64,000 nt of DNA from Tubulanus polymorphus. Taxonomy: Eukaryota > Animalia > Nemertea. The translations under genes and the position numbers were made by a program. The stretch is taken from NCBI RefSeq assembly GCF_964204645.1, contig NC_134028.1, positions 16,747,653-16,811,652 on the forward strand. Direction: 5' to 3'. This document shows positions 18,527-51,038 of the stretch, piece after piece; the first letter of the stretch is position 1; each line of letters starts with the position of its first letter. The notes under the pieces were generated by a model that was not told the DNA's origin, made no database searches, and was given only the letters and a program-made list of their open reading frames with translations.

Positions 18527-19086
18527 AGTAAGAGGGTTAATGGGCTTTCAAGCCAAAGGTCGAACGGTCGAGCTCATTAAAATACAAAACATTAAAAGTA
18601 ATTTAAAACTATAATATATTTTCATAACCGTGCGCATTTTATATTATAACTAAATATTTATGTTAAGATATCAATAATTTAAATTTTAAAAGCATATTGT
18701 ATTAAATCAATTGGTCGCTCCACTTCGCTACCGCTCCGCTCTGCGACCAATTGATTTATTTATAATACACAAATTCATATAATCAAATACATTCAAATAA
18801 TAAGAATTATTCTATTATTCAACTGAAATACACACGGTTATGAAAATATATTATAGTTTTAAATTACTTTTAATATTTGTTTTTAATGAACTCGACCATT
18901 CAACCTTTAACCTGAAAGCCCATTACCCCTATTACTCTTAAAATAATCATGTACATGAATAACATTTAAATTGACAGATTATTCAATATAAAAGTATATA
19001 TTTACAACATTATTTCAATATTCATATTTGTGTGAGTTAGATTTTTAAACATTAAAAGTGTTAGTAAAGTGTGATTGAAATAATGC
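18527..19086 (+). repeat. Left TIR of Polinton, whose first 410 bp (18527-18936) form a fold-back
   Basis: Reverse complement of ~35862-36426. Internal arms are AGTAAGAGGGTTAATGGGCTTTCA.../...TGAAAGCCCATTACCCCTATTACT, with a central 16-bp stem at 18703-18718/18743-18758. Confidence 0.95.
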
Positions 19087-19804
19087 ATAGCTGTTTATAC
19101 TAGAACATGATTCTATTTGAGCCTATAAACATTTCATGTAATGAACTATTGAATAAATCTATAAATTCACAGCTGTTACAGCTGTTACTATGACGCCGAG
19201 ACATATGAGTCATTATTGCAGCAAACGTGTAGAGAAAATTGTAGAAGGTGTGCCGGAACCAGATGACGTGGCAGGAAATGAACAGGCGCTGTAACATTAC
19301 GCTCAGGATATTCTATCTCTCGAAACGAAATTAGGAGTTTATAGTTTACAATTCTAAATCTAAATGTAAGTACTGTTTTTTGTAGTTATTAGGGCTATTA
19401 AATATGAAACCTTTAGATATATTTAAGTGTATTTAGTATATCTTTTAGATGGCTAGAGTTGCCGCTAATATCTTCTAGATTAATAAAACGCCATACGCAT
19501 CAAGAAGTGATAGAGAAACTCAAGATACTCTTTCTGACTGAGGAATCAACAGCAATGGATATCGAACCAATAGAAATTAGCACAAGAAACACAAGAATCG
19601 CCAAAAGATCAACGAAGAAACTATATAAGAATTTCAAAAACATTAAGACTCCAATGATTAAGTTTAACATTTGTTGATGTAGTTAAATATTTACCAGCAA
19701 TTGAAAAAATGTTTGTAATTATAAATTGTATTTATAGAAATCAAATGATGTATTGGAAGAAACGACTGAACAACTTGTATAATGTATTGTGTAAATCTGA
19801 TTGG

Positions 19805-20170
19805 TGACACATGTAACGCATGTGACGCGGACATGAACGCGTTTGAATTTTCTATGTTCAGTTGTTTCTATTTTACAGAATGAATATATAATTATGATTA
19901 GCGCATGTGTATTAAGCAAAAGCGGACATCAATGGCCGCATGTGGCGCATGTAACGCATGTGACGAGGACATGAATGCGTTTGAATTTTCTATGTTCAGT
20001 TGTTTCTATTTGCATAATGAATATATAATTATGATTAACACATGTGCATTGATCCAAACCGGCCATAAATGGCCGCATGTGACGCATGTAACGCATGTGT
20101 TGTTTCTATTTTACAGAATTTATAGAATGAATATATCATTATGATTAACGCATGCGCATTAAGCAAAAGC
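19805..20170. repeat. ~140-bp tandem repeats (about 2.5 copies) rich in GCATGT/CATGTAACGCATGTGACG motifs
   Basis: Repeated CATGTAACGCATGTG...GTTGTTTCTATTTT..AGAATGAATATAT..TTATGATTA at ~19810, ~19948 and ~20085. Confidence 0.85.
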
Positions 20171-20343
20171 GCTCCTGTATGTCCGCATTTGACGCGGGTA
20201 TTGTAACTGGTATGATTTAGATATCAAGGAATCGAAACTGACTTATCAAAAGCAGCGAGGAATGAAAAAGGATGACGTTGGTCGAAGAAATGGAAGAGGA
20301 TTCTAAAATATTAACCAATTTAGTAAAAAAATACGTATAATAA

Positions 20344-21000
20344 ATGGAACCAGAACAACCACAAACTATCAATATTACAAATAACGCTGGTGTTATAAAT
20401 ATATATTACAAGAAGTGTTCTAAATGTGAATTAGATAAATTAGCTTTAACAGAATTTAGTAAGCGTAAGATTAGCCATGATGGTTTTCAATATTGCTGTA
20501 AAACTTGTTTTAAACTATATACCAAACAATACCGAGAAGATAATATAGAACATTATAATTATTATATGGCAGAATATATGAGAGAAAGATATCAAACAGA
20601 TCTTAATTTTAGATTGAAACAATGCTTAAGATCTAGATTAACACAATTATTCAACAAAGAAACACATTCAGAAACACTATCTAATCTATTGGGTTGTTCA
20701 GATGAATTTCTCAAATCATGGATTATATTTCAATTCGATGATAAAATGAATATAGATAATTATGGGGATTATTACCATATTGATCACGTGTTACCGATTT
20801 CTAAATTTAACATGAATGATGAATACAATAAAAAAACTTATTTGGGGTTGAAAAAATTTAAGACCTCTTGAAAAGAAAGAAAATCAAATCAAATCTAATA
20901 AACTAGATTTACAGTTATATTTAGAACAGTTAACAAAGGCAAAGAAATTTATTGATCAATGGAACAATGATCCAAATAATGAACAATACGTTGAGGAATT
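20344..21000 (+). pseudogene. HNH endonuclease with N-terminal Zn ribbon, NCLDV-like; frameshifted at C-terminus
   Basis: CSKC...EF...SHDG.QYCCKTC, LLGCS.EFLKSWI..QF and YHIDHVLPISKF. Another frame continues KNLRPLEKKENQIKSNK. Confidence 0.75.
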
Positions 21001-21324
21001 TGATATCAAGGATCCGAAATGACTTATCTGGACAGTTATAATTACTGCTCCTAATAGATAAACAAAAGTAGTGAGATATCAAATAGAATTTAAATAAAAT
21101 ATAATAAAAAAACAATAACTTCAACTAGCTAGTGAATTCTATTATATTTTTAATATTTTCTTTTCAAAAAGAGAATACTTTATATTTTGAATAGATTCAA
21201 ATATAAATTCTTTAAATTCAAATAGCTAGTATCAGTAGTCAATACTAGAATTCTTTAGCTTTAACTAGCTAGTATCATTTGAAGAATACTTATAATATTT
21301 TTTTGCTTTTTTTCTCTAATATAA

Positions 21325-21933
21325 ATGTCAAAGAAATCGAGTAAGAATAGTATTGATATTGAAAAGACATTAGTTGATTTGGGTATAAGTGATAATAAAG
21401 ATACAGTTGTAACTAATTGTGCTCAAGTTAATTGTAATATAGATTATGAATACTATTTATATTGTAAGCATCATCTAGAACTATTGATTGCCGGTGGAAA
21501 AACTAAGGAGTTTTTAAATAGAATCATTACTTTTCAAGAATTAGATGCTATGAAACCAGATAAAGTAATAAAATATTTTAAGATTTATGAAGAGGCAAGA
21601 TTGGCCCGAATAAATGATTCTATTTCAGATGGTATTGTCAAATGTTATTCTAAGTTATGTAACCAGTTAATACCAATTGATGATGAAAATAAATTATATA
21701 GTGATTTGAAAAATGACTACTTAGTTATGACTGAATTACAAAAATGGGTTGGTTATGCTTCATTTCAATTAGGATCGGTTATGACATTAATTTCTACTGG
21801 CGTCATAACATTTTCGAACATCAAGCCTATGGAATATAAATCAGGTAAGAATGAAACAGATGACGCTGTACTACAACCAAACAGCGAAACAGAAAATGAA
21901 TCAGAACAAAAATTAACTAAAATAAATGAGTGA
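21325..21933 (+). CDS. Polinton hypothetical protein (202 aa)
   Basis: Intact ORF with T7-N8-TAAATG start; function not identifiable. Confidence 0.7.
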   Translation: MSKKSSKNSIDIEKTLVDLGISDNKDTVVTNCAQVNCNIDYEYYLYCKHHLELLIAGGKTKEFLNRIITFQELDAMKPDKVIKYFKIYEEARLARINDSISDGIVKCYSKLCNQLIPIDDENKLYSDLKNDYLVMTELQKWVGYASFQLGSVMTLISTGVITFSNIKPMEYKSGKNETDDAVLQPNSETENESEQKLTKINE

Positions 21934-22257
21934 TAGCGTTAAGAAAAAGGCTAGATCCGAGAAACAAATTAAATGGGCAAGAGAATTAGGTAAAAGATCT
22001 TCAGAATTAAAAAAAGCTAAGAAAAAGAAATTAACTGATATAAATGAATCACAGACTTTATCTGATATTGATTCAAATAATAATCCATCTGATTCTTCTC
22101 ATGCTGGAAGTAATTATAAATTATATATTACAATTGGATAAGTAACAGTTATTATATTATCCGGCGTAATATATAAATCAAAATTCAAATCTGATGATAA
22201 ATATGATTCCAATGACAATAAACCTATTACCAAGATTATTATTAATGGATTAAAATA
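21926..22257 (+). pseudogene. Small basic protein with a hydrophobic segment (stop-interrupted)
   Basis: TAAATG start and KKKARSEKQIKWARELGKRS. The frame continues past a TAA with VTVIILSGVIY. Confidence 0.5.
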
Positions 22258-22259
22258 AG

Positions 22260-23373
22260 ATGAAAAAAGAACAATATTTAAGAGATTTATGTTATAACCC
22301 AGAAAGTGAAGTATCATATTCTAACGTTACAGAATTATGGGGTAAAATTAAATCTGATAAGGAAAATGGCGCCATACGGCACCCACACGGTGATATAAAA
22401 TATAGTGAATTGAAATCATGGTTACAAAATCAACCAACATATCAAATACACAAGAAAATGGATAAAACTTATTTAACAAGAAAAGTTATGGTTTCATATA
22501 TTGATCAACAATGGCAAGCAGATTTAATTGACATGAAGAACTTAGAAGAATACAACAAAGGATATTTCTGGATACTGAATGTTATAGACATATTCAGTCG
22601 ATACGCATGGTCAATTCCAATCAAAAATAAAACTGGTATCGAAGTAACAAATGCTTTTAAGAATATATTTAAAGAAGCTATTCCAGATAAGATACAATTT
22701 GATGAAGGTAAAGAATTTTATAACAAACATTTTAAAAAACTATTATCTGATAACGATGTAGAATATTTTCCAACACATTCAGATAAAAAAGCATCTATTA
22801 TAGAAAGATTTAATAAAACATTGAAAACTAGAATCTGGAAATATTTTACTGCTAATGAAACATATAAATATATCGATGTGTTAGATGATTTAGTGAAAGG
22901 TTATAATAATTCTAAACATAGTTCTATAAATATGAAACCTATACAAGCTAGAAAAGAAGATAATTCAGAAATAGTTTGGAATAATTTATATGGCGCATTT
23001 GTTACACATGATTTCGGAGAACCTAAATTTAAAATTGGACAACACGTAAGAATATCTAAATATAGAAAAACATTTTATAAAGGTTATACTCCAAATTTTA
23101 CAGAAGAAATATTTAAGATTAAAAAGATAATATTAACTAAACCTTTTGTTTATAAATTAGAAGATTTAAAAGATGAAAAAATATTAGGTTATTTCTATGA
23201 ACAAGAATTATCACTTGTACCAAATCCAGATGAAATAGAATACTAAATAGAAAAAGTATTGAAAACAAAAACTCTTAAAGGAAGAAAGTATTCTTTGGTG
23301 AAATATAAAGGATATGATGATAAATTTAATGAATGGATTTTATCTAGTAAAATTAAAAGAATAAATGAATAAA
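22260..23373 (+). pseudogene. Retroviral-like (RVE) integrase with C-terminal chromodomain; premature stop at 23244-23246
   Basis: WQADLIDM, VIDIFSRYAW, QFDEGKEF and IERFNKTLK. After the stop the frame reads IEKVLKTK...YSLVKYKGYDDKFNEWI (chromodomain). Confidence 0.92.
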
Positions 23374-23976
23374 GATTTATTTATATTTGAACCGTATAAT
23401 ATGTTAGTTACTGGAGTAACCAATTGTGGTAAAACACATTTCATATTAGATTTGTTAGAAACTATTTATAAGAATCATTTTGATAATATAATATTATTCT
23501 GTCCTACTTATGAAATGAATGAAACATATAATAGAGACATAGTTAAGATAAAAAAGTTTATTATATTAGATCCTAAAACAGTAAAAGAAAATTTAGATAA
23601 TTGTATAAAAATAGCAATTGATACTTATAAAGGATCAAATACATTATTCATTATAGATGATTGCGCAAATTTACATGATTCAAAAGTTAGAGAAAGTGAG
23701 TTATGTTATTTAGCTTTCTCTGGAAGACATTTTGGGATAACAACATCGGCTTTAAATCAAAAATATAATTCAATTATTAAAGACTTTAGGAAGAATATAA
23801 GATTTCTAGTTTTATTTTATAACAAAGATAAAAAATCTATGCAACAATCATTGGAAGAAAATCAAATTATACCTACTGAATTACATGATGAATATATGAA
23901 TAAATTAAAGAATAATAAAGGTTCAAAATTATTACTGAGATTACAATTTCCATATGAATATAAATTTATAAAATAA
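23365..23976 (+). CDS. A32/FtsK-like DNA packaging ATPase
   Basis: Walker A VTGVTNCGKT, Walker B LFIIDD, SGRH motif, NQ..IIKDFR. Confidence 0.93.
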   Translation: MNKDLFIFEPYNMLVTGVTNCGKTHFILDLLETIYKNHFDNIILFCPTYEMNETYNRDIVKIKKFIILDPKTVKENLDNCIKIAIDTYKGSNTLFIIDDCANLHDSKVRESELCYLAFSGRHFGITTSALNQKYNSIIKDFRKNIRFLVLFYNKDKKSMQQSLEENQIIPTELHDEYMNKLKNNKGSKLLLRLQFPYEYKFIK

Positions 23977-24289
23977 CTATTTATATATCTATCTAATACG
24001 TATTAAATACATTAATACTTAAAACCCCCTTTTTTTAAATAAATATTATTCATACAATTTTCAACCAATTTATTTTTATTTTTTTCAACTAATATATGAA
24101 TAAGTTTGAAAATAATAAAGGTTATTTATTATTACTGAGGTTTCAATATAAATTTGAAAATATAATTTAAGGTATTTTCAAATAATACGTATTAGATACG
24201 TATTAGATATGTATTAAATACGTATTAGATACCTTAATACTTAAAACCCCCTTTTTTATTTACTATTATTTTATACAATTTTCAACCTT

Positions 24290-25151
24290 TATTACTTTTT
24301 GAGTGTTAGGTAATCACTTTCTGAATCACTTTCACTATCAGACCCTAACAATTTATTCAAATGCGCTACCGTATCTTCATAAATAATTGGTTTATTGATA
24401 TACTTATTAGTCATCTCAACTATATCTTTATTTTCTGATTTAAGTTTCATAGAATCTTTATTATCAATGCGCTTTCCTGTATTTTCATTATTATCTTTAT
24501 TAGTGTTTGCTCCTAATATTTCATTTACAATGTTTGATTCTAATTTAATAGCATCGGTTAAATCTAATTCATCTTTATTAGGCGTTGCTAATAATAAATC
24601 TTTATATAATTCTTTACCATTTACTTTTTGATTTCAAACAAACTTTGTAACATATCTAAATGGGTGTTCTATAAATTCTCTTAAACCAATACGTTATAAC
24701 ATTATAACAATATAACATTAGTAATATGTGAATTTGTATTCATATGATTATTCCAATTTGATGGAGCGTTTGAAAACTCGCCTTTATAATAATCACAATA
24801 ATTTCTATTTTCACTAACATTTAATATTATTTCATTATTAGATGTAGAAGGTATTACATTATTAGATGTAGAAGGTAATACATTATTAGATGTAGAAGGT
24901 ATTACATTATTAGATGTAGAAGGTATTACATTATTAGATGTAGAAGGTATTACATTATTATCAATTACATTACTTAAATTATCAACAACACCACTTTAAT
25001 TATTATCGATTTCTATTAGTTTAGTTTTATAAATTTTGAAAATAGGATCAAATATCAAAGCTATATTACAAGGTATTACATAATATAAACCATCATTATT
25101 TTCATGTGTATCTATGTATGGAATATGTTTATATACTTTACCTCCTTCCAT
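24290..25151 (-). pseudogene. Polinton hypothetical gene with 24-bp (SNNVIPST) repeat array at 24833-24960
   Basis: TAAATGG start at 25151 (MEGGKVYKHIPY...). Five tandem CATTATTAGATGTAGAAGGTATTA units are present. The frame is broken by stops. Confidence 0.55.
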
Positions 25152-25183
25152 TTATTATATATATTTTTATTAAAGTTAAAATT

Positions 25184-26431
25184 TTAATACATAACACTAT
25201 CTAATTGTGAATTTACAATATTTAATTGTGCGTCAGATATAATATAAATGTGCATTTTAAAATTTTTGATTCCTTTATTCTTTGTCATGAATAATTGTAT
25301 TCCATCTTTAGTGTTTTGTAATTTTTTTCCAGAACCATGTAATGAATTATCCTCTGTTGTCCTAAAATCTAACCATAATGCATATTTATTACCGGTATAA
25401 TAATCAATTTGATTAATATTACAATTTTCAGATGATTTTACTTTTTCATTCATAAAATGTTTTCTAATTTCTGGCCATTGATCAATCATTCTCATTCCTT
25501 GACAAAATATTTTATTTGCTATTCCTTCGATAGTTATTTCTACTTTTGTTATTTCAGGATTATAATAATTATCAACATTTATTGCGCCATTAGTCTACGT
25601 TGCAATGGTAAAAAATATTAATATACCTTTAATAGATCTTCTTGGGAAGTTAATATTCTCATTAATAATTTCATCATTTGCATTAATAGTTACAGTTTTA
25701 AATTTATCAATATAATCATATAATAATGAAAATCCTTGATTGTATTGAGTTTGAATTATACTTGCAATATTTTCATCAGTTACTGTTTCATATTCTAAAC
25801 ATATATTCGATAATTTATAACTCATATCTTTATTAACGCTAGATAATACAATTTCATTTACAGGAGCAAATGTTATTTCGAATATAACGTCTTCTTGAAT
25901 TGCGTATTTATATAAAGGTGCATTATTATTTATTAATTCAAAGTCTAATGGAATTTTATATTTGCTTCCATATATAATTTTTATCAATTTATCTATAGAA
26001 TTAGTTAATATTGCGCTATTAGCTTCTGATCTTAATTTATTTTGGTTTTCTGATTGGATGCCTTGAAATATCATATTATTTCTATTTTCTTTAGTTAACC
26101 ATAAATCTTTATAATGCATAAATAAATTATAATCATCTAATGAGAAAACTGTTTCTGGACCAATCTTTATTGTTAATTTTTTAATCAAATACCTTCCAAC
26201 ATTATCAACAACATAATTATTATTATTACCGATTACTTTTATATCGGCTGATAAATAAATACTATTTGGAACATAAAAAGTATTTTGTGTTAATCGAGGA
26301 ATTCTAACATATAAAGTTTCATCGGGATTAATATTAGAAGGGTTATGAGTAATTATATGATGTGATCTTTCTGCTTTAATAGCATTAGATATTCTATGAT
26401 TCTTAGAAGGATTGATATAACTCCCACTCAT
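25184..26431 (-). pseudogene. Major capsid protein (double jelly-roll, Polinton type), split by one in-frame stop
   Basis: HNPSNINPDETLYVRIP, VDNVGR.LIKKL, YKDLWLT, NICLEYETV, RSIKGIL, YNPEITKVEITIEG..N, YALWLDFRT.EDN.LHGSG and IISDAQLNI match my recollection of invertebrate Polinton MCPs. Total length is ~415 aa. Confidence 0.8.
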
Positions 26432-26451
26432 TTATTTAACAAAAAAATTAA

Positions 26452-27903
26452 TTATTTATTTTTGATCATGTTTACTAACCCAAAAATAATAGCACTTACA
26501 ACTGTAATTAAAAATAAAATAATATGTTCAGCAGCAAAGTTAATAATGTTTCCTGCAGATTTCAATATAAAACCAACAATTGATGCAATAATTCCTGGTA
26601 ATGCTGCAGCAGATTTTTTAGATAGTTCCCATAAATATTTTGCTAATTTCTTTAAACCATCCTTAACTTTATCTTGTATAGAATTATTATCATTCGGGGG
26701 TTTATCTGGGTTATTGGGAGTAGGAGTAGATTTCAAAGCATTTGATATTGCTAAACCAATTGTTGTAAATACCATAGTTACAGCTGTTAGAATTGAAAGA
26801 ATTGTAATACCTTCTAACTTAAATAATCTTATTCTATCTTTCAATGATATTTTAGAATTTGGTTTAATCAACAAATCTTTAAAAACATCTTTTAATCTTT
26901 TAAAATTATAACCAAATTCTTTTAATAATATATCTCTTTCACCTTTCAGTACTTCTAAATTATCTTTTAAATTATTAATTTCTTTTTATAAACCTAATTC
27001 TTTTTGCCTATATTCTATTTTATCAATTGCTTGATGGTCTAAATCAGACTTTAATTTTTCTATTTCTTTATTTTTATCAGTTAATTCTTTTTCTAAATTG
27101 TTAATTTTAATATCTCTTATACTTTTTTCATTCGCAATTTTATCAGCCGATTCTTGCATACCTTTAATTTCTCTACGTGTTTGTTCAGGATATAATTCTA
27201 ATTCATCATCAGTTAAATCAAGTAATCCCTTCGGTAAAAGTTTTTCAGTTTGAACTTCGTTTGATTTAGGTTTACTAGTTTTGGAAGTTTTATTCTGTTC
27301 AGAAGTTGTTTCTGTTTCTGGATTATCATCGATTATTTTAAATAAGTCATCAATTCTTTGACTAAATACTCTTATATTATCATCTCTTTCTTCTTGTGTA
27401 ACATTGGTTATTTCATTACTAATACTTATTCTCTTAATTTAATCTGGACCTAATTTTCTCAAAGTTGATTCCGCTAATATTTTATTTAGTTTTGTTCTTT
27501 GATCAGTGATATCAATATAATAATCACCATCCAAACGATAATAATATTTACCTTTAAAAAGTTTTAATTTTTGTACTAAAAGTCTGGCGCCTCTATCATT
27601 TATATTATATCCAGATTCTTTAAATACACGTTGAAAATCATACATAAAATCAATATTTTCAATATCTTCCTTTGATAAACCTGGGTCTAAATTTTCAGTA
27701 GGTATTCTCGATCTAGTTCTTCTATCAAATTCATCTGTTGATGGGGCTTTAGAACCACTATCTGCTAAATTAGAATTATATGTTGTATCATTATCATTAT
27801 CAATATTAGTATCAGCAGTCATATAATCATCATTGTTAGTATTGGCATCATCATTATTTCCCATGCCTTCCATTTCATAATCTTCTCCACCTTTTACATC
27901 CAT
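26452..27903 (-). pseudogene. Acidic/coiled-coil protein with C-terminal transmembrane helices, fragmented
   Basis: The ORF pieces at 27439-27903 and 26452-26874 share one TAAATG start. LKDRIRLFKLEGITILSILTA...AALPGIIASIVGFILK is followed by a hydrophobic tail. Confidence 0.65.
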
Positions 27904-27918
27904 TTACATAACAAAAAA

Positions 27919-29123
27919 TTAAAATCTAAAATATAATATTCCTCCGATTACAATTCCTATACAAGTTAAAGCTAATTTAGCATTTTCATGGGATTTATTA
28001 TCATCATTTAGTTTAATTATTTCATGTTGAATATTATCAGTTTTTATATCTTCTGATGTATTGTAATCTTTTATTTTAGAATCATTATTTAATTTAATAT
28101 TATTAGTTTTAGTTTCAGTTGATTGAATGTGCTTTTTATTTTTTTCACCTTCCATTAATTTTGGAGCAGTAATAATCTTTTTATTTATATCATTTAAACC
28201 AAATGAATTATTCATTGTTGCTATCTGATATCTTACAATTTTTTCTGGAATCGATCTATTTTTATCATTATGAATTGAATCTTCAAATAATACTTTGAAT
28301 TGTTTCTGCGCATCGAATGAAGTGTTATCATTTCCAATTATTGGGGATCTTGTTTCAACTTGCGCGCCTAAAATACATATCAAATAAGTTCTAATTGATT
28401 GATTTATTCTTTGTATTCCAGCTTTAGTAAAACCTTCACTATTTTCTAAAATGAAATTAACCCAACCATTATTATTTTGTTGTTTATATTATTATAATAT
28501 TTTGGTAATTCATTCCAATTTAGTGTTCTTATATCTGAATTTGTCATTATTTTTCCAAATTCTTTAGTATACAATATTCCTAATCCACCCATTGTTCCAA
28601 TTTTTGCTCTAAAATCTTTATTTGAATTAATATCAAATTCATTACATATTTTATAAAACTTAGAAAAATTAATATTATTATTCAATTCTTTAAAATATTT
28701 TGAACCTGGTAAAGGACATTCTAATTCATCTAATATTAATTTTATTTAAAAATATGTATGAAATCTAAAAAGTGATAACATCAATGGTAAACTTGGTTTG
28801 TTTAAATGATCATTCCAGCTAATTCCACATCCTGTTGTTGCGCAATAAACAGCAAAATTTAATTGGTTCTGCCAATACTTCATATTAGATTTTAATAACC
28901 ATTGTTTTGCCTCATTTAAATTTTTGAAATTAATTGTATACACATGAAATATATTTTCCATCTTTACATGAAAATTATTACTTTCAGTAACATAAATATA
29001 TAAATCAATTAGTGAATTTAAAACTTCATTTCTGTATGTAATATCTTTATTAAAATCTATTGCAGGAATATTATATTTAATTGATTTATTATATAAGAAA
29101 GCTTTTGGAAAACTATCTGCCAT
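27919..29123 (-). pseudogene. Conserved Polinton protein of unknown function with C-terminal TM anchor, frameshifted
   Basis: WQNQLNFAVYCATTGCGIS and ILGAQVETRSPI. Three ORF pieces share one TAAATG start. Confidence 0.65.
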
Positions 29124-29139
29124 TTATATAACTAAAAAA

Positions 29140-29574
29140 TTAATAATTTATTAATTCTTTTAATAATTTATCTTGTTCTTCAACTGTTATATAGCCATTT
29201 AAACTTATTATATAATCTAGTGTATTCTTTAATTTATTAATTTCTTTTATATTAGTTTTAATTTTTTCTTTATTACTTTTTATATTTAATTTTGAACTTA
29301 TACTAGTTAATACACTTGAACTTAATCCTAATACACCAATTGATATAGCTAAAGGTGTTAATGGACTGAATATTGCTAGAAATGTTATTACAGAACTAAT
29401 TGTAACCGAACCACTTATAATCAAATAATATATAATTTTACTTTTTAAATATTTTTTCTTTTTTATCTTTAAGTCACTTTCAAATTCTAATATTTGTTTT
29501 TCTAAATATGTTTTTAATTTAGTTTTATTTATATCATGAGGAATAATATCAATATTATCAACTTTATCTTCCAT
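29140..29574 (-). CDS. Two-TM membrane protein
   Basis: Hydrophobic hairpin IIYYLIISGSVTISSVITFLAIFSPLTPLAISIGVLGLSSSVL flanked by basic/coiled regions. Confidence 0.75.
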   Translation of the reverse strand: MEDKVDNIDIIPHDINKTKLKTYLEKQILEFESDLKIKKKKYLKSKIIYYLIISGSVTISSVITFLAIFSPLTPLAISIGVLGLSSSVLTSISSKLNIKSNKEKIKTNIKEINKLKNTLDYIISLNGYITVEEQDKLLKELINY

Positions 29575-29590
29575 TTATTTAGCAAAAAAA

Positions 29591-30016
29591 TTACTTATTA
29601 GTAAACTTATAAGCAACAAATATAACAATAACTGTTCCACTTAAAATCCATATTATTTCATATTTCTGCTGTTCTTTACTTGGGGTATAATAATCTGATA
29701 ATTTAGGTTTGTATGGATGTAATTTTTCTTTATTTGTTACCGCGTTATATAAACTCATTGCATCATCAACTGATTGAAAATCTCTATGTGAAATCTTCTG
29801 ATCATATAATTCTTTGTTAATATAATCCATATAGTTTTGTCGTTTTTCTCTATATTCTTCTGCTGCTTTATTGTATATCTCTAATGCTAAGTTATGTCTT
29901 TTTTGTTCTGTTAATGAACCATTTCTATCAATATGCTTGAATAAATAACCACCACCAGTAAATGCTAAAGCGTTAACAATTGCCGATCCTATGATAGTTA
30001 TAATTGCAGAAGCCAT
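29591..30016 (-). CDS. Small protein with N-terminal hydrophobic/amphipathic helix and C-terminal TM
   Basis: MASAIITIIGSAIVNALAFTGGGYLF...EQKRHNLALE...PKLSDYYTPS..Q..YEIIWIL. Confidence 0.75.
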   Translation of the reverse strand: MASAIITIIGSAIVNALAFTGGGYLFKHIDRNGSLTEQKRHNLALEIYNKAAEEYREKRQNYMDYINKELYDQKISHRDFQSVDDAMSLYNAVTNKEKLHPYKPKLSDYYTPSKEQQKYEIIWILSGTVIVIFVAYKFTNK

Positions 30017-30040
30017 TTATTTAGTAAAATAATTACGCAT

Positions 30041-30263
30041 TTATATGGGAGGAATATATTTTTGTTTTTCCAAATAATCAATAGTTAAATTAGATAAAGT
30101 AACTGCTAACGTTAATTTTAAAATATCATTTATATCAAATCTATCAACATTAACACTTCCCCTTTTAAATACTTTTTTTAATACCATTGAATAACCAACA
30201 GTTCCAACTGATAGTAATGCGCCATTATATAATCCAGTTATTATCCACTTATTAATCACTCAT
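30041..30263 (-). CDS. Small hydrophobic protein (true ATG probably 30263, 1-nt shift)
   Basis: TAAATG overlaps the stop of the upstream ORF; LYNGALLSVGTVGYSMVLKK. Confidence 0.55.
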
Positions 30264-30605
30264 TTATTTATCAAAAAAATTACTATCTTCAAAATATTTA
30301 GTTAACTTATTTATGATTATTTCAACATTTATTTCATTACTACTTTTATGATTATCACATATTTTGGTTAATATGTTTTTAATATCATCAATAATTCCAT
30401 CTTCATTTAATTCATAATATTCTAAAGGTGATTTAATTAAATCAATTACTTTTTCTATATTATAATTTTCTTTATTAATCATTGATGCATTGTTAAATGA
30501 TTTACTTTTTATATCAGTAATTACATCATTTAGTTTAATTCTCATTTCTTTACCATGTTTAAAATCAAACCCAAAACATATACTCGGTCCAACAGTTATA
30601 TTCAT
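30264..30605 (-). CDS. Hypothetical protein (113 aa)
   Basis: Intact ORF with T7-N7-TAAATG start. Confidence 0.6.
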   Translation of the reverse strand: MNITVGPSICFGFDFKHGKEMRIKLNDVITDIKSKSFNNASMINKENYNIEKVIDLIKSPLEYYELNEDGIIDDIKNILTKICDNHKSSNEINVEIIINKLTKYFEDSNFFDK

Positions 30606-30622
30606 TTATATAGTGAAAAAAA

Positions 30623-31382
30623 TTACTCTTTACATCTTATAACTAATTCATAAATTACAGGAAAGTTATTCAAATCAATTAAATATCCATTGTGATTTCT
30701 AATTTCTAATCTAAAATTATTAAAACGAGGAATGCATGGTTTGAAATCACATTCTGTTAAATTATAATTTATTTGCGTTCCAAATTCTTTAACATTCTTC
30801 AATGGTAAAATGTTTAGTAAACCAGAATTACAAGTTATATCTTTAGTTGCTTCGAATATTTTGTAGGATCGATTAAATTGCAATAAATATAAAAATGCGT
30901 GTAAGGTATTAAGTTTGGTGTAGCAACATCAATATTTGTAAAAGATCTATCTGGAAGAATTCCTAACAGTTTAGCTATAGGTTTTTTTACCATAAATTTA
31001 TGTTTTTCACTATTAGACAACCTTATCTTTATTCTATCAGAACTATCACTTTTTAAAATCTAATACTAAACCCAGAACTACTACCTAATTTGTGCCAGGC
31101 TTTTCTATTAATTTCTTGTGCTAATGTATCTAAATTATATAACCCCGGTGTTAAATATATATAGACCCATGAATCTATGTGTCTATTAAAAACTAAAAAG
31201 GCTCTATGTTCAATAGTTTTATTCGATATATTATAAAAAGAATTACATAAACTTATATTAACTAATTTTAAATCAACACAATTCTTGAATTCTCTATCTA
31301 ATTGTACTAGTAAATTATGTGATTTATAATTAGTAAGTCTTCTAGAATCAACAAATATTCTGTATTCTTTTAATTCTACCAT
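30623..31382 (-). pseudogene. Minor capsid (penton-like) protein, frameshifted
   Basis: LVNISLCNSFYNIS, LTPGLYNLDTL, IYCNLID and LEIRNHNGYLIDLNNFPVIYEL follow the single jelly-roll penton pattern of Polintons/PLVs. Confidence 0.7.
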
Positions 31383-31396
31383 TTATTTTACATATT

Positions 31397-31750
31397 TTAT
31401 TCGAAATCTATTTCATGGTGCCCTTTTTCATTCTTACCTTTGTATACGAAATAGAAATCACCAGAACATAATTCTTCTAGATCTTCACTTGATAATCTAT
31501 GAAATCTATCCGGTAAATATGTTCTGAATTTATATGTATTTCCTTTTAATCCTTCATATTCTAAGTGTATAACTAATTTATCTCCATAGTTATTAGTAAA
31601 TGTAACAATATCTGTAATTAGATATTTCTTATGGATTGTTAATTCTGTTAACTTTTTGAATTTATAATCTACAGATTTTACATTTGTAGTATCTTTTATT
31701 CTATATAGAAATAATTTGTTGTTCTCACTGTGTGTTTGTTTACTCTCCAT
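31397..31750 (-). CDS. Small protein downstream of pPolB, possibly OB-fold ssDNA-binding
   Basis: FKKLTEL..KKYLI....TNNYGDKLVIHL...TYLPDRF...FVYKG; function inferred. Confidence 0.55.
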   Translation of the reverse strand: MESKQTHSENNKLFLYRIKDTTNVKSVDYKFKKLTELTIHKKYLITDIVTFTNNYGDKLVIHLEYEGLKGNTYKFRTYLPDRFHRLSSEDLEELCSGDFYFVYKGKNEKGHHEIDFE

Positions 31751-31779
31751 TTATAATACATATTTTTATTAAAATTTGA

Positions 31780-34700
31780 TTAACACGTTAGAATTCTTTT
31801 CATTATCTCGTTCTCTTTTGTTTCTTCTCTTTTAAATTTTAAGTATTCATATAAATTACAACCATAAGCAACTGTAGGAATTCCATCATCTAAAATATAT
31901 CTTTTATCATCAAATGGGTTTGGACTTATCTTTTCAATTTTTTCAATAAACATTTCATGATCTTCAGATCTTAAACATCTCATTTTATGTTTTCTAACTT
32001 CTTCATTGAATATACAATTGATGTAATCTTTGAAATGAATATTCTTTTCTACTACACTTTTGGTTATTCCTTTTAACTTTTTAGCTTCGTGGTCTTAAGT
32101 TTTATATGAATACATTTTAGATCTAATACCAATGAATTCAATCATTTCTTCACCGCCTAATTCATCTTTGAATTTACCGGGAACTTTTTTATTATCATTG
32201 CTAAACAATTCATGATTTTTAGGATAATTTCTAAAATCAAAATGATGTTTTAATGTTTTTAAATCATCTGTTATGTTATCAGTTTTTATCTTTAATATGT
32301 AACTGTCGGTATCAAAATATAATATTTCTATATGTTTTTCTCCAAAAAGTGGTTGTAATACATTATAATAGAATTCATACATTAGTAATTTTGATAATTC
32401 TAAAACTGAAGCGCCAACATAGATTGGTTTATTAAATTTCATTGATGTTCTTCTCATTTTAACTGCAGCTAAATTTTCATCAAATATTCTGTTACCAATG
32501 AACTTAGGATATGATTGTAAATGTCTAATTCTTTTACCATTACTAACTAACTCAATATCATTTCTATTTCTAATATTTTCACAAGTCTTACCATAGAATG
32601 CATTATTCATTAACTTGAAGAAATCTTTTTCGAAATCAGTTTGAGCTTTAGTTCTCTGTTTGGCGTTAAATTCTATATACTTTTCTAACCACTTAGATTG
32701 GCTGAATGAAATATATCTATGTACTTTTTTTAGAATTATTCCTTGTTTTAGATAAAACTTTAACATTCTATAATGTACTACATAATTATATTTATCTTCC
32801 TGAGTTACCATTATCTTTTCTGTATGAATATGATTTTCGGGTTTAATCTTTTTTGATAATTTGATAATTCTTCATGAGTTACAGTTTTATGTTCGGGACA
32901 GTAAGCTAGATTTCTAGATTTAAATTTAATATGTTCAGGATATTCTAAATCTACAACAAAGAAGTAACCAGTATCTGAATCATCTGCAATATCTAGAATT
33001 CTTTTCTTCCAATCAAATTTATCATTATTTTCATTCTGTAAAACTTCAGTTAATTCAAATACTCCATAAGGTTGTGGTTCCATCATTGCCCAACCATACA
33101 AATTATTTGCATCTATATATAATAACTTATATCCAGGGTTATCATTTACATTGAAATATCTATCACCTAATACACCTGAAACACCTCCTCTTATAGATTT
33201 TTCAAATAATAATAATTGATCTATTTTTGTTGACAAATCCATTTTTATATCTGTAAATTTTAAGCCACAATCCCATGTTAAACCTGGTGATGAATAACAA
33301 TGACAAGGATCAATATTAAAATATTTTAGGTTTACATCACTAAACCTTTCGAATATATCCGATAATAATAATACATCTGATTTTAAATATAAATCTACTA
33401 ATTGCCCATGATTTTCTATTTTGAAATGATTCCAAATATTCAATGTTCTATTATATACTTCATCTTTAACATATTCATTTTTTAATTCATCATAAAATTG
33501 TTCTTTTAATAATTCAGTTATATTGAAATCATTATGTGATTTATAAAATGAATGTGGAATTGCTCCTTTATATCTCATTAATTGAAAATCATCATTATTT
33601 GGGTAATATTCTTTTAATATCTTTAATTCATCATCAACTAATGATTTTGATAAGTAATCTAATGAACTATTTAAAAATCTATATGAATCTATAAATCTTA
33701 GGCAACCAAATTGGAATGATATATAATTCTCAGATGTTTTAGCTAACATTCTAAATTTATAAGTTGGTATTTTATCTTTTGATCTATTTGAATTTAATCG
33801 TTCTATTTCATTATTAATTTCTTCTATTTTATGGCATAACTGTTTGATGAATAAATGTGCATCATATCCTGATAGATTATGAAATATAACTGGTACAAAA
33901 TTGATTTTCTTAGCTTGTAAGTTACAATTATCATGTGTAGCAGCGCCTCTAAACTTTCCGTTCAAATGATTATGGTCTCTTACTTTTTTATCTTTAAAAT
34001 TAAATATCTTTTCACAATAATAACATTTATCTGCAAACGCAAATTCTTCTTTATCTTCTTCTGTCATTATAATTTCTATATTTGTATTCAATAATTTACT
34101 AAATCTTATTTCATATTCAATTAATAAGTCACAAAAATGATTGATAACATTTTCATTTCTATAATCATAAAATTCACTTTCAATTAGTTCTGGATAATCA
34201 GATTTTATACATAACCCGAAAGCAGCAGCTGATTGATGAATCTTTTTAATAGTATTTGTTTTTGGTGGTTCTTCAGAATAATCATTTTCATTAGAATTTA
34301 ATTTCTTTCTCTTATAATATATTTCTTTTCTATCTTGATCAGTTATTTCTTTATTTAATGATTCAAAATCTCCATATATTACAAATGGTACTTTATTTTT
34401 GTAATCATATTTTTTGAATTCTAATATTTTATCCTTTTCATTTGGTAAAACTAATTTACAATAATCATGATTTTCACATAATTGTTTATGATTTAATAAT
34501 GTACTTTCATTACTGAATCTATGTAAACATTTTCTACAAAGATATATTTTATGGTGATCATTTTCTGATTTAAAAAATAAATCGATTTGTTTAATCCACA
34601 TATAATGATTCTCATAATATAGTATATCTATTACATCATTTGAATCATAATCTTTTGATAGATATAAAGGTTCTAATGTATAATGTTTTATATTGTTACC

Positions 34701-35806
34701 TTTTGTATTTGGTAATTTGATTAAATCAAATACATTTATTCTTAAATTATTATCTCTTTCTATCTTTGGGACGTTTTTAATTCTAACAGGATACTTATCT
34801 ATCTTATAATTATTTTCAAATGGTTTATAATGAGTTAATCTAAAACTATGTTGTTTATAATCTTCAACTGGGTGTAAACAACTTATTATAGCCCATAGAA
34901 AACATTTATCATCATCATTTTGTACATTTATTACAGCATTAGTTTTAAATGGTAGTTTAATATAACTCGATGCTTCAATATCTGGTTCTTTATAATATGA
35001 TACATTATTTTCATCTATAGGTTTTGATTTTGTTAACTAATTATATTTTGTGTTAAACATGTAAAGTCATAAATATTATTTCATCAAATATTAAACCAGA
35101 TCCTTCAAAATATTTCTCTTCTATTTTAGTTTTTACTTCATTATAACATTTATCTAATTTATCATCTATATGTTGTTTATATATAATATGTTGTGAATGA
35201 GAATTTATATTATATATTGGTTTATCTTCAGATTTTATAAACTTTACTTTAGAAGATATACTAATTTTAATTACTTATTTTTATTATTTCTTTCATATTT
35301 TCTAAATGTTTTTTATTTTCTTCTAATGTTTTTCCTTTATGAAATTTAAACTCGATAGCTGTTGGACCAATATCACTTTTAAATGCTTCGGTTATCTCTA
35401 TATCTTTTTTATTATCTAATGAATTAATATATTTTCTTACATCTTCCATGTACGGTCTTTTATTGTTTAATTTATTTTTTATGCTTTTAATTGTCTTCTG
35501 TTTCTTATCATTATCTTTATCAAAATAATCTTCACCTAAAATATCATTATTCATATTTCTAATATGACTTTTAGATTTTAAATGTTCTTTATAATATCTT
35601 TTATCACTGAATGATTGATTACATGTATCACATTTGTATGTTTCTTTTTCATTCTTTAATTCATCTAATTTAGTTTCTAATATATCATCTTCATATTCTA
35701 ATTTCAATTTATTCTCTAAATGTGTTTTAGTTTTATTGTGTCTTGCTTTTTGGGATTTATCTATATTGATATCACATGTTGGGCAGTAGTACTTATTTGC
35801 TTCCAT
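31780..35806 (-). pseudogene. Protein-primed family B DNA polymerase with N-terminal C2H2 fingers and endonuclease VII-like insert; several frameshifts/stops
   Basis: Exo motifs VIYGDFES, FHNLSGYDAH and YLKSDVLLL. Pol motifs YIDANNLYG, KLMNNAFYGK and YFDTDS. CYYC...VRDHNHLNGKFRGAA.H.NCN is EndoVII-like. KCFLWAI..CLHP lies at ~34880. Confidence 0.95.
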
Positions 35807-35861
35807 TTTAATACTAAATTTTTTATTAAAATTGATTTTAGAAGTTCAATGATTTATATCA

Positions 35862-36426
35862 TGTATTATTTCAATCACACTTTACTAACTAACACTTTTA
35901 ATGTTTAAAAATCTAACTCACACAAATATGAATATTGAAATAATGTTGTAAATATATACTTTTATATTGAATAATCTGTCAATTTAAATGATATTCATGT
36001 ACATGATTATTTTAAGAGTAATAGGGGTAATGGGCTTTCAGGTTAAAGGTTGAATGGTCAAGTTCATTAAAAACAAATATTAAAAGTAATTTAAAACTAT
36101 AATATATTTTCATAACCGTGTGTATTTCAGTTGAATAATAGAATAATTATTATTATTAAAATATATTTGATTATATGAATTTGTGTATTGTAAATAAATC
36201 AATTGGTCGCGGAGCGGAGCGGTAGCGAAGTGGAGCGACCAATTGATTTAATACAATATGGTTTTTAAATTCAAATTATTGATATCTTAGAATAAATATT
36301 TAGTTATAATATAAAATGCACACGGTTATGAAAATATATTATAGTTTTAAATTACTTTTAATGTTTTGTTTTTTAATGAGCTCGACCGTTCGACCTTTGG
36401 CTTGAAAGCCCATTACCCCTATTACT
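35862..36426 (-). repeat. Right TIR of Polinton; fold-back at 36017-36426
   Basis: Reverse complement of the left TIR with scattered substitutions. Confidence 0.95.
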
Positions 36427-37779: not shown

Positions 37780-38940
37780 TTAAGAGCAAAGTGCGCGCTT
37801 GACATTTGATATTTCCACGCAAACAATAACTACATCATCCATTAAAGGAACGGTTTTGACCTCCAGCGTATTCTTTAAAATTCTGAAATTCTTCATCCGC
37901 CCTATAGCTTGCTCAACATATATCCGGACGTTTGCAATTCGGGATGTAGTTTTCACTGAATCCTTGGTCATCTGTGCATTATGATAAACAATCGGGGGGA
38001 TTGCTAACGTTGCGTGTCTTGATATTAAAATTTCCTGAACTTTGAAACCTCGGTCGGCCATTATTTCGTCGTGTGGTTCAATGAAGTCGAGAATACCGCA
38101 ATCAGTGAATATATATTTATCACTAGCACGACCTCCGTAGCAAGGCGAAACGTACGATATCAATCCACTTGGAGTAATGGCAATCAAAAACTTTATCGTA
38201 TTAGAATGTTTGTAGTCGCTCCAAGTAGCTGCTTGTAGGTCGAGCGCTGTTGGCGTTTCAATAGAAATTTCAGTGCAGTCCACGATACACCTTGTATGCG
38301 GATAAAACTGAACAAATGCAGCTGGTAGAAGAGCTTTGGTTTGATTCTTTGAAGGCCAGATAATGATACATGATAATTCAAGCCTCATTAGATGTATCCA
38401 CGTTGAAAATATCGAGCTAACGGCAGAAATTGATACGTTGAAACGGTGCGATAAATCACGAACCAATAACCCCAGACGTAAACGCATCAAAACCATGAAA
38501 TATTCATCTTCGAGGATTAGTTTTCTCCTTCTACCCATCTTATTGTTCGACAGAGTTTCTCTTGTTTGACCACCTCTCCAATAAACCATACAGGCAGCTT
38601 TTTCAGACAAGAAATTAAAAATAGTTTTCAAAGTTGCCCGATTATCGAAACCGGTAAAGAACTTTACGTCAACATCCCGCGTCATCTCATCAAATGCGAC
38701 GCACGATGTCAGGCTCATCGTGTTCCCATCACCTGAACCGTCTACCGCAACACCCGTATATATCGGCTGCGTTGTGGTCTTCTTACTAATCACCGAACGT
38801 GAACAATCTCTATTTTTTCGCTTCTTTGGCATATTTTGTTCCTCGTTTGTAACGTATGGATAAGGGTTGATATCGGTCGGCCTCCCATCGATGAAATGAT
38901 TTGAGCAGACCTTCGACGTCACTGTTAGCTGCTTACCCAT
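37780..38940 (-). CDS. THAP(partial)-HTH-DDE_Tnp_4 transposase
   Basis: VCSNHF (THAP C-half), FFTGF, VLMRLRLGL..DLSHRF, IVDCTEI, GGRASD, IMADRGF and RIYVEQAIGRMK. Confidence 0.9.
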   Translation of the reverse strand: MGKQLTVTSKVCSNHFIDGRPTDINPYPYVTNEEQNMPKKRKNRDCSRSVISKKTTTQPIYTGVAVDGSGDGNTMSLTSCVAFDEMTRDVDVKFFTGFDNRATLKTIFNFLSEKAACMVYWRGGQTRETLSNNKMGRRRKLILEDEYFMVLMRLRLGLLVRDLSHRFNVSISAVSSIFSTWIHLMRLELSCIIIWPSKNQTKALLPAAFVQFYPHTRCIVDCTEISIETPTALDLQAATWSDYKHSNTIKFLIAITPSGLISYVSPCYGGRASDKYIFTDCGILDFIEPHDEIMADRGFKVQEILISRHATLAIPPIVYHNAQMTKDSVKTTSRIANVRIYVEQAIGRMKNFRILKNTLEVKTVPLMDDVVIVCVEISNVKRALCS

Positions 38941-39177
38941 TTTTTTCTAGTGCGGTTTTACAGTGATTCACAAATGTTGGATCATTGCGTCGAACAATGT
39001 CGTAATATATCAATTTTCCATCTACATGAGGTTTTTTTTATCTCTGAGAACGGATAATTTCTTGCGTTTTCACAAAAACAGCAATTGTCATATTTCCCCA
39101 TCTGTAAATAAACGTAATACACATGTTTGTTATGAAAGCTTCTTAATTTGAAAAATTGATTTTATTTCCATTTCAGA

Positions 39178-40980
39178 ATGGCTGAGATCCAGGGATACGA
39201 TGATTTTGTCAAATTGACTGTAGACAAATTAAAATCGTATTTATGCGCTCGCGGTTTAAGGACGACGGGCACGAAAGCTGAATTGGTCGCAAGATGCTTT
39301 TGTGCATGGGAAAATAAAACTCCACTTAAAATAAGCGACGTCCAAATCGGGAAAAAACTAATCGATGAATTACAACCTTACGCTAATAAAGGCAGGACTC
39401 GACAACCAGCACGATCCGAAATCAACATCGAATTGGTCCACCGATATGAGAAATTGGACCATGCTGAACATAGGACAGATATTCAAATTCATCCTTGAAC
39501 ACAGAGATTACAATATCGATTACATCGGAAAGTACAAAACCATGAAGGCCTATTACTACTTTGCAAGCGGATACGTCGGACCAATCATGTATGAATTAAT
39601 TAATTTATCTATTCCAATCATCGTATATAAATCAACAGTAACACCTTCGCAGAAAATCAACGATAGTCCTCATAACGTTTGGATATCTTGTGATCGCCAG
39701 ACTAGTGATATAAAGGCAGCGTGGTGCAGTTGCACAGCAGGTTATGGAGAGACGTGCAATCATGTAATCGCAGTACTTTATAAACTTAATCATGCTATTG
39801 AAAATTTTCTAAATGATAAATCATGTACGGAGGAAGGATGCGCGTGGAACAATCAAGCCAGAAAACAGATCAAACCAATGAGAGTTAGTGATATGTATTT
39901 CAGAACTGATGCGGTAGCCTTGAATTATGATGTAAACGACGATGATGAGATTGATGAAAACGATACTACGCCAGTTATTTCGAGAAAGAACTTTGATCCG
40001 AGAACACCACAACATAGAGTGATTGACGAAACAAGATTAGCGTCACTATATGAATATCTGCATACTACAGCACCTAGATCAGTACTTGTCTCGGTATTGT
40101 CATTGCGAAACAACTCACAGATAGCACCTGCACTTCCACCAACTATTCGGGAAATAATTGATAATGAAGAGGATTGTAAAATAATTGAAACGATTATTTC
40201 AATATCTAATGCGCAAATTGAAGCACTTGAGGGCGCAACAAGAGGACAATCTTCATCGAATATGTGGAAAATTCATCGAATTGGCAGAATTACTGGCTCC
40301 GTGTGCCATAACGTATACACCAAGGTACGTACTTGAACGATTATCATCATTGCTCAATCATAGGCTCATTGATTATAATGAAAAACTATCATTTCATTCA
40401 AGGTCAACACAATGTTGCGATCAAGGGCAGCAGATGTCGACTGCGAAATCTTCTCTTCCGAATTTGTACGGCTGGCCCTTCATTAGCTTCTGTTCCGGCT
40501 GTAATTTGGGGAAATGAAAAAGAGGAAGGAGCAAAAGCGAAGTTCCTTTCGACGATGAAAGATAGAGGCCATGTCGATTGTTCTATATCGACATGTGGTC
40601 TGTTTTGCGACAAACAGAAGCCCTATATTGCTGCGTCCCCAGATGCGATTTTCGAGTGCAAATGTTGTGGGAAGTTTGTCGTGGAAATTAAATGCCCGTA
40701 TTCGATAAGAGGAAAAAACATTCTAGAGAACTATCAACAGACGTCATTTCTGGTTATGAACGGTGGTCAAATTCAACTGAATCGCAGCAGTAACTACTAC
40801 AGTCAAATCAACTGCGAAATGAAAGAGACGGGTATATCGGCGTGTTTCTTCGTTGTGTGGACGGGTCATGATCTGTTCATTGAACAAATTTCATTTGACA
40901 ATGATTTATGGGAGAGAATCGAAACGAATTCGGCAATATTTTTCAAAGACAAGATCATACAATATCTCAAAAGGAAGTGA
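39178..40980 (+). pseudogene. SAP + SWIM + YqaJ/lambda-exonuclease-like protein of ISL2EU; frameshift ~39365, probable intron from 40325
   Basis: LTVDKLKSYLCARGL..TGTKAELVAR (SAP), CSCTAG..ETCNHV (SWIM), TRGQS...W...R.GRITGS, AASPD..., VEIKCP and YYSQI. Confidence 0.88.
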
Positions 40981-50600: not shown

Positions 50601-51038
50601 TTCGATGATATCCAACGATTCTAACTGATTTAACTTATCTTCTACTTTTTTTCGCAACGCGAACGGAATACGCCTCGATTTCTGCTGAATCGGGGTTAAA
50701 GATTCATCAATATGAATTTTCGCCTGATAACCCTTTAATTTTCCGACACCTTCGAATAGGTGTTTATATTTTGATTCGATTTTTCGGTCATCTGCGGTGG
50801 AGTCCTGAACTGAGTTTAGCGAACCGACCCCTACCTTCAGTACACCAAGCTTTTCAGCTGTACTTTTACCGATAAGCGAACGTCCCTTACCGCGAATCAC
50901 CATAAACTCGTCCTCGATGCAGCGATCACCAACTGAAATTTCCGAACGAAATTTTCCGATGGTTGTCAGTGGTTGACGAGTCCCATATGGATACAGCTTC
51001 TTTGATGTACGTTCCGCTTTACCACAACATACACTACA
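47611..51038 (-). mobile_element. Ty3/Gypsy LTR retrotransposon, internally deleted (gag and most of 5' LTR lost); TSD GGTAC
   Basis: The 3' LTR at 47611-47731 (TGTAGT...ACTACA) lies next to the PPT. A 20-bp LTR remnant is at 51019-51038. GGTAC at 47606-47610 and 51039-51043 is a single copy in the empty site at ~17304. Confidence 0.92.
48258..50903 (-). pseudogene. Gypsy pol: RT-RNase H (49353-50903) and integrase (48258-49343), separated by a stop
   Basis: RLCIDMR, FSKLDLKWGFHQ, LLFGVSSAPE, IADD, VDASPVGLG, YSQTEKE, TDHKPL, HEGHQG...C..C, DNGPQF and NGEIERQNR. Confidence 0.95.

Follow-up and report, generated by a model that had tools for sequence, protein, structure and literature searches.

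The window analysed here, a 64,000-nt stretch of the genome of the nemertean Tubulanus polymorphus (contig NC_134028.1, positions 16,747,653 to 16,811,652 of the forward strand), carries at 18527-36426 a decayed 17.9-kb Polinton/Maverick element whose core genes nearly all begin at a conserved promoter-like signal. The element was assigned to the Polintons/Mavericks because it has terminal inverted repeats (TIRs), TTGTC flanks, an RVE integrase, an A32 packaging ATPase, a protein-primed DNA polymerase B (pPolB) and a double-jelly-roll capsid protein. TTGTC forms a 5-bp target-site duplication on either side of the element, and target-site duplications of Polintons/Mavericks typically measure 5-6 bp. 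With 20-29% GC, compared with 31-47% in the surroundings, the element is an AT-rich island, and most genes of this copy are interrupted. DNA reads with the same species label (from 1,934 Mb) covered the whole element ~600-fold and were mostly 90-99% alike; the element is therefore a multi-copy family, which would comprise ~150-600 copies if the genome measures 0.5-2 Gb. A search against Rfam returned 0 matches. Elements of this kind are stated to lie almost always in animal genomes (10.64898/2026.06.19.733378), and the transposon types in the flanks and a likely spliceosomal intron also point to an animal as the host. The features of the element are listed below, each gene with the tract class of its putative promoter and its start.

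18527-19065, + strand: left TIR, 539 nt; first 410 nt an imperfect palindrome; TTGTC at the flank
19366-19478, + strand: likely spliceosomal intron in the left-arm transcript; GTAAGT donor, CTAAT branch-like site, TTCTAG acceptor
19800-20200, + strand: repeated left-arm segment with CACATG/TGACGCATG units and TTTCTATTTTACAG acceptor-like sites
20326-20871, + strand: HNH-nuclease-like gene; A-tract promoter and TAAATG; first fragment 175 aa, broken near its end
21307-21933, + strand: conserved 202-aa gene, function not assigned; T-tract promoter and TAAATG; orthologs in the relatives L001, L003 and L005
21908-22141, + strand: basic protein; A-tract promoter within the upstream open reading frame (ORF) and TAAATG; first fragment 71 aa (129-177 aa in relatives)
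22260-23354, + strand: RVE integrase (rve, E 1e-9); start TAAG-ATG; interrupted by a stop at 23244-23246
23347-23976, + strand: A32-type packaging ATPase (Pox_A32, E 6.5e-12); A-tract promoter and TAAATG; 203 aa, open frame
24292-25169, - strand: low-complexity protein; A-tract promoter and TAAATG at 25151; 24-nt tandem repeat; in fragments
25184-26449, - strand: major capsid protein, double jelly roll; T-tract promoter and TAAATG at 26431; interrupted by a stop at 25595-25597
26452-27921, - strand: coiled-coil protein with a hydrophobic C-terminus; T-tract promoter and TAAATG at 27903; three fragments
27919-29141, - strand: conserved ~440-aa protein; T-tract promoter and TAAATG at 29123; interrupted; 1321 homologs
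29140-29592, - strand: two-helix membrane protein, 144 aa, weakly SLATT-like; T-tract promoter and TAAATG at 29574
29591-30034, - strand: small hydrophobic protein, 141 aa; mixed-tract promoter and TAAATG at 30016; kept in L001, L006-L009 and L016
30033-30281, - strand: small hydrophobic gene; T-tract promoter and TAAATG at 30263; broken after three codons
30264-30623, - strand: 113-aa gene, function not assigned; T-tract promoter and TAAATG at 30605
30623-31400, - strand: candidate minor capsid (penton) gene; A-tract promoter and TAAATG at 31382; interrupted; 254-aa ortholog in L001
31397-31768, - strand: 117-aa gene, function not assigned; A-tract promoter and TAAATG at 31750
31780-35824, - strand: pPolB (DNA_pol_B_2, E 5e-11); start TAAA-ATG at 35806; broken in this copy
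35888-36426, - strand: right TIR, 97% complementary to the left TIR; 410-nt hairpin; TTGTC after it

The capsid gene starting at 26431 is 78% identical to a natural relative, P0001, whose structural model (pLDDT 84) matched the double-jelly-roll capsids of iridovirus, PBCV-1 and mavirus (Foldseek E 1e-14 to 1e-10). The pPolB of the window aligns along a 1253-aa pPolB-like protein of L171, a contig of a second Polinton lineage, and chromodomains were found at the C-terminal end of the relatives' integrases. The HNH call is a weak one (HNH_4, E 0.05 in the window; HNH, E 0.006 in a relative). By its size and position the gene at 31382 is probably a minor capsid gene, and the gene at 30263 was matched by eye, from position and sequence, to a 75-80-aa gene of the relatives that is too short for grouping by blastp. 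The model of the conserved ~440-aa protein, taken as the 442-aa protein of L001 (2996-4324; pLDDT 83), had no match in libraries of solved and viral structures (best Foldseek E 0.9 and 0.1, Z 4.6) and no usable match in the Atlas. No adenovirus-type cysteine protease was found by Pfam, or by tblastn with the protease-like domain of L171 in the element and L001-L022, searches that a diverged protease could escape.

The starts of these genes share one motif. For the analysis, 16 window starts were picked from the gene layout, with internal ATGs of broken fragments omitted. The original prediction, made from the letters of the window, had placed 14 of them in TAAATG, and all 14 indeed read TAA-ATG; the two genes that it named as the sole deviants, pPolB and integrase, start with TAAA-ATG and TAAG-ATG. 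TAA thus precedes the ATG at 14/16 gene starts, compared with 38 of the 611 remaining ATGs of the core (p 1e-14 by Fisher's test), 37/411 short ORFs called by the same rule and 0/20 ORFs of at least 100 aa outside the element. A thymine occupies position -12 in 15 of the 16, and positions -18 to -14 are solely A or T. The prediction had further described a T-run at near-fixed spacing in the capsid/membrane cluster; its six spacings are as written, but the run turned out to be one end of a single A-to-T tract motif, which the A-rich starts at 20344, 21926, 23365, 25151, 31382, 31750 and 35806 also carry. Against a shuffled background, the pattern WWWWT-N7-W-TAAATG was found 22 times in the window where 5.0 were expected. 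The element holds 17 of these, of which 13 coincide with gene starts, a count that is circular because the pattern was derived from the same starts. Intergenic spacers, put at ~15-25 bp in the prediction, measured 14-32 nt at 7 of 11 junctions and -8, 0, 118 and 453 nt at the others, with some of the lengths running to the end of a broken fragment.

The motif is also found in related elements. A capsid-alignment scan of metagenome contigs gave 22 loci (L001-L022), and starts were counted in L001-L014 and L017, with the degraded L018-L022 left aside and 6 ORF calls dropped as shadows or internal ATGs. TAA-ATG was found at 58/64 starts versus 83/2208 other ATGs, and five of the six remaining starts have TAAA within 7 nt. 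It persists from 20-44% GC and where genes have changed their order or strand, while L015 and L016 (capsid ~45% identical, ~30% GC) have it at 0/8 starts. Window and relatives together yield 68 distinct promoters, in which a T at -12 (65/68, versus 26/83 non-start TAAATG) and an A5 or T5 tract (48/68 versus 12/83) accompany the start. A dominates from -18 to -16 and is followed by T, G and C are almost absent from -18 to -12, and G stands at +4 after the ATG in 47 promoters. The tract class is stable in some ortholog groups (ATPase, 5/5 A; the 21325 group, 4/4 T). In a quick capsid tree of 61 rows, motif-bearing loci fall on all main branches, and L015 and the more distant contig L144 lie outside on long, unsure branches.

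Further observations concern these relatives. L171 has TAA-ATG at 7/7 genes without the full tract motif, and its protease-like domain is fused to the integrase. L144, a Polinton-like contig with a capsid 36% identical, has AAA-ATG at 4/4 starts, three of them as TAAA-ATG, together with A/T-rich divergent spacers; it is filed in a bacterial genome bin and is likely a misbinned contig. L001 carries at 10340-10981 a deoxynucleoside kinase gene (Pfam dNK, E 2e-31) preceded by a T-tract TAAATG promoter; further close homologs of it numbered only three. The coding strands of the motif-bearing L001, L003 and L005-L013 are poor in runs of T5/T6 and A6 (z -3 to -5), and those of L015/L016 and the host transposons are not.

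From these counts, the motif reads as a conserved bipartite promoter-like signal: an A-to-T tract at -18 to -12, a T at -12, a short spacer and TAAATG. Eight divergent gene pairs were found, and in six of them only 19-30 nt lie between the start codons, in the form CATTTA...TAAATG, with the motif on both strands. Since neither strand of such a pair has a gene upstream of the start, re-initiation does not account for them. In just 3/58 cases is the TAA the stop of an upstream frame of at least 50 codons, and a YAG acceptor lies within 12 nt of the start in 5/68 promoters. A signal that occupies either strand of a spacer of 24 nt, at fixed distance from the ATG, would most simply be a promoter at which transcription starts at TAAA. 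The idea that the T-run is merely a terminator was ruled out by the divergent pairs and by the gene at 21325, which lies far from any upstream stop.

This geometry was compared with known promoters. In vaccinia late promoters, TAAAT(G) spans the start codon and a T is conserved ten nt upstream, and intermediate promoters have an A/T-rich block 15-19 nt upstream that ends in T (PMC11980589); the spacer of poxvirus promoters is 5-7 bp (PMC5294985), and TAAA is directly read by the poxvirus polymerase (PMC12917281). The prediction had described the vaccinia late promoter as a T-run, a short spacer and TAAAT(G). Counted back from TAAAT, the T at -12 of the element is the 9th base, and counted back from the first A of TAAAT it is the 10th, which is within one base of the text of PMC11980589, depending on how that text counts. 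As judged from these published descriptions, the geometry of the motif agrees more closely with poxvirus post-replicative promoters than with the other motifs compared. Three of those were not enriched in the 68 promoters: the mimivirus late motif with up to one mismatch allowed (6, versus 5.7 in shuffled sequence), the TCTA motif of Cafeteria roenbergensis virus (CroV; 15 versus 13.9) and ATNTGA, the upstream sequence of yeast virus-like elements, at 20-40 nt (1 versus 5.8). The baculovirus late motif DTAAG (11 versus 12.3) and the poxvirus early core (0/68) were not enriched either and were rejected.

We consider it fairly probable, at about 0.62, that the core genes are transcribed by the machinery of a co-infecting helper, a large DNA virus that would be most like a poxvirus; that the helper really is pox-like is a more tentative proposal, somewhat short of even odds. 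In such a programme, the helper's polymerase would start at TAAA and make messages with almost no templated leader, to which a poly(A) leader might be added by slippage at TAAA as poxviruses do. The core genes would stay largely silent, or their messages be cut short, in an uninfected nucleus, and on infection the genes for replication, packaging and the capsid would be turned on, as with mavirus and CroV. The left-arm unit, on the other hand, would likely be transcribed and spliced by host RNA polymerase II (Pol II).

A helper-driven programme appears the best reading because of four lines of evidence. First, no match to an RNA polymerase family was found in the ORFs scanned, nor a fold match for the 442-aa protein, the one orphan modelled for that; a Rap94 match at chance level (E 0.02) occurred in L016, which lacks the motif. 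Second, AATAAA is not avoided in the coding strands (122 in 20.4 kb versus 121 expected) and falls once per 170-220 nt, a density that would be a problem for Pol II messages; AT-rich genes of yeast cytoplasmic elements are cut when expressed in the nucleus (PMC4431711). Third, virophages share late promoters with their helpers, as the prediction had stated for mavirus and CroV, and integrated mavirus is silent until infection (PMC6428243). Fourth, the association of Polinton-like viruses with entomopoxviruses, which it had mentioned, is on record (PMC11296320). Its proposal of a pox-like helper is partly supported, by the promoter geometry and by the lack of a polymerase match in the ORFs scanned; a poxvirus in preference to another large DNA virus, the presence of a helper in this host and an antiviral role of the element are conjectural.

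Several points weigh against this interpretation. A likely intron indicates nuclear transcription of the left arm: in contigs of sequencing run X4, position 19365 is joined to 19479 across GT..AG. The same donor takes part in two further joints, loose ends match it as well, and 0 reads of DNA run X5 support the joint. The intron is graded as likely, the run type of X4 not being on record and the short sides of the joints measuring 22-28 nt. The prediction that introns are absent thus holds for the gene core and probably not for the left arm, just outside the span it covered. As this arm is apparently transcribed in the nucleus and spliced there, a helper would not drive the whole element. The tract class is not sorted cleanly by function: capsid promoters comprise 7 T, 3 A and 3 mixed, which rules out a clean intermediate/late split by gene function, and a two-stage cascade is therefore not claimed. 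The p-values overstate independence because orthologous promoters share ancestry, and the AATAAA test is a weak one because this hexamer is no scarcer than expected in the window's host transposons either (9 versus 8.2, at far lower density). A transcription start at TAAA is itself a prediction from sequence. Core genes of a coral polintovirus are reported to be expressed in field colonies (PMC11131425), although these elements may belong to another clade or the colonies may have been infected.

Searches for a helper belong to the same side of the balance. Among the matches listed in two motif scans of viral contigs, no recognisable poxvirus-like contig was found. In the first (80 loci with flanks), 2 of the matches listed had TAA at no fewer than half of their starts; the proteins of the element found no match in either, and Shine-Dalgarno-like leaders were seen in one. 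In the second (80 loci), 7 of the matches listed reached 35% TAA-ATG, one of them a Polinton and six giant-virus-like. The kinase of L001 led to no helper either; used by itself, it picked out a single locus (L143, 37%), where 2/19 starts are TAA-ATG. When viral contigs were scanned with the capsid, the ATPase, the 442-aa protein and the kinase alignment, no relative was found. The Rpb2 domain was absent from 3/3 partial records searched, a result that is uninformative as the records are partial. TAA-ATG is also frequent in non-pox giant-virus-like loci (L192, 9/15; L203, 6/16; L146, 5/14; up to two in each by selection), though two such records tested lack an excess of the full motif; a poxvirus is thus a likelier helper than others rather than an established one.

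The strongest competitor to a helper is host Pol II itself, which would start at the motif in the nucleus, guided by a factor of the element or by an unusual core promoter. We regard this as unlikely. It would accommodate the likely spliced left-arm transcript, the coral expression data, the several conserved element proteins without assigned function, and the nuclear phase implied by the relatives' chromodomain integrases and the many integrated copies. The giant-virus-like loci L146 and L203, which we take to be kin of prasinoviruses, also have many TAA-ATG starts, and prasinoviruses are not known to have an RNA polymerase of their own. Set against this are the AATAAA load of the coding strands and the position of the tract, 12-18 nt from the ATG: a start set by TATA-binding protein lies 25-30 nt downstream of its site and would thus fall within the coding sequence. 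The T at -3 is likewise contrary to the purine of the Kozak context.

Within the helper-driven interpretation, the helper might instead be another large DNA virus, or a plasmid-like element with a pox-related polymerase as in yeast pGKL2, an option of similarly low standing. The non-pox loci with TAA-ATG speak for it; the mimivirus late motif also has a T twelve nt before the start block (PMC11464507), yeast virus-like elements use a TAAAN initiator (PMC6211774), and polymerase genes of basal egoviruses are described from marine sediments (10.1101/2024.03.23.586382). Against it stand the counts of the mimivirus, CroV and yeast motifs, none of them above the shuffled level to any extent, and two non-pox giant-virus records in which the full motif shows no enrichment relative to control (7 versus 6; 6 versus 4).

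A translation signal (stop-start re-initiation, internal entry or a trans-splice site) on long polycistronic messages from two ends is distinctly improbable. The window genes do lie in two head-to-tail arrays, the upstream stop often stands directly before the T-run, and at 30263 the TAA is the upstream stop. Such a signal is at odds with the divergent pairs, with the scarcity of TAA as upstream stop and of YAG acceptors near the start, and with the persistence of the motif through gene shuffling. Finally, a by-product of AT-richness and first-ATG-after-stop calling, which the low GC of the element would favour, is very hard to credit given the short-ORF control, the persistence of the motif at 36-44% GC and its absence from L015/L016 at ~30% GC.

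The element with its proposed helper-driven programme can be set beside several known systems. In its TIRs, target repeat, RVE integrase, pPolB, A32 ATPase, double-jelly-roll capsid, size of 18 kb and many copies it is like the Polintons/Mavericks (Polintoviricetes), including the adintoviruses of PMC8502044; neither the window copy nor L001-L022 yielded an adenovirus-type protease, a mark of group 1 Polintons/adintoviruses, in searches that a diverged protease could escape. Its promoters share with poxvirus intermediate and late promoters the TAAAT(G) over the start, the T about ten nt upstream, the A/T-rich block 15-19 nt upstream and the short spacer (PMC11980589, PMC12917281, PMC5294985), and differ from them in forming one continuous A-to-T class rather than two clean classes. 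Small DNA viruses with genes behind helper-type late promoters are known from mavirus/CroV and Sputnik-Zamilon/mimivirus (PMC6428243, PMC11464507), and integration, pPolB and RVE integrase are shared with mavirus; unlike these pairs, the element has neither TCTA nor the mimivirus motif, its capsid is of the Polinton kind and its host is likely an animal. The Polinton-like viruses found with entomopoxviruses are, as described in PMC11296320, proposed poxvirus parasites in animals that have a protease, lack an RVE integrase and have highly divergent capsids; their link to poxviruses comes from co-isolation, that of the window element from promoters. Yeast pGKL1/2 are likewise AT-rich, linear elements, with pPolB and a TAAAN-type initiator, and one partner supplies a pox-related polymerase (PMC6211774, PMC4431711). 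Unlike the element, they need the ATNTGA sequence, present in 1/68 of the element promoters. They are not known to have a capsid or integrase.

No published promoter analysis of this kind was found for Polintons among titles and abstract openings, with subscription papers and preprint supplements beyond reach; the text and supplement of PMC11296320 have no passage on promoters or motifs, and two 2026 surveys do not contain 'promot'. The expression of Polintons in animals, and whether particles are ever made, are long-open questions, and a promoter that points to a helper makes expression testable with short reporter fragments and 5'-end sequencing. In its widest form, which we hold to be doubtful, the proposal would be that integrated Polintons of animals, across a broad clade, act as endogenous virophages of pox-like viruses yet to be discovered, with hundreds of copies, one spliced host Pol II unit and all replication and capsid genes behind poxvirus-type post-replicative promoters, forming an inherited antiviral trap triggered by infection. 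Helper-driven transcription of such elements would mean that the integrated-virophage strategy known from protists exists in animals too. It would also predict pox-like viruses, or related ones, in hosts without described ones, and provide a sequence mark by which Polintons could be sorted into helper-dependent and autonomous lineages.

Some further features of the locus were noted. In the left arm, TGACGT and CAGGAA motifs (19260-19300) lie directly before the first exon of the spliced unit and AATAAA occurs at 21093 and 21103, after the HNH-like gene; together these may delimit a Pol II unit. The depth of X4 contigs over 19230-21100 is far above that of the core and was not counted, as the depth of contigs is no basis for ranking genes. 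Two copies of AATACGTATT...AAAACCCCCTTTTTTT at 24000-24260, where the gene arrays converge, could be a termination or binding site. The first 410 nt of each TIR (18527-18936 and 36017-36426) may fold into a long imperfect hairpin (-110 kcal/mol, z -22), and the terminal sequence is therefore present twice, head to head, at each end. About 120-130 DNA reads join 20907 and 35695 on opposite strands, which suggests rearranged family copies. The flanks carry a DDE_Tnp_4 transposase beside a SWIM/YqaJ gene (37780-40980), Gypsy-type reverse transcriptase/RNase H/integrase (48258-51062) and an 839-nt inverted repeat with GIY-YIG ORFs (54943-57156).

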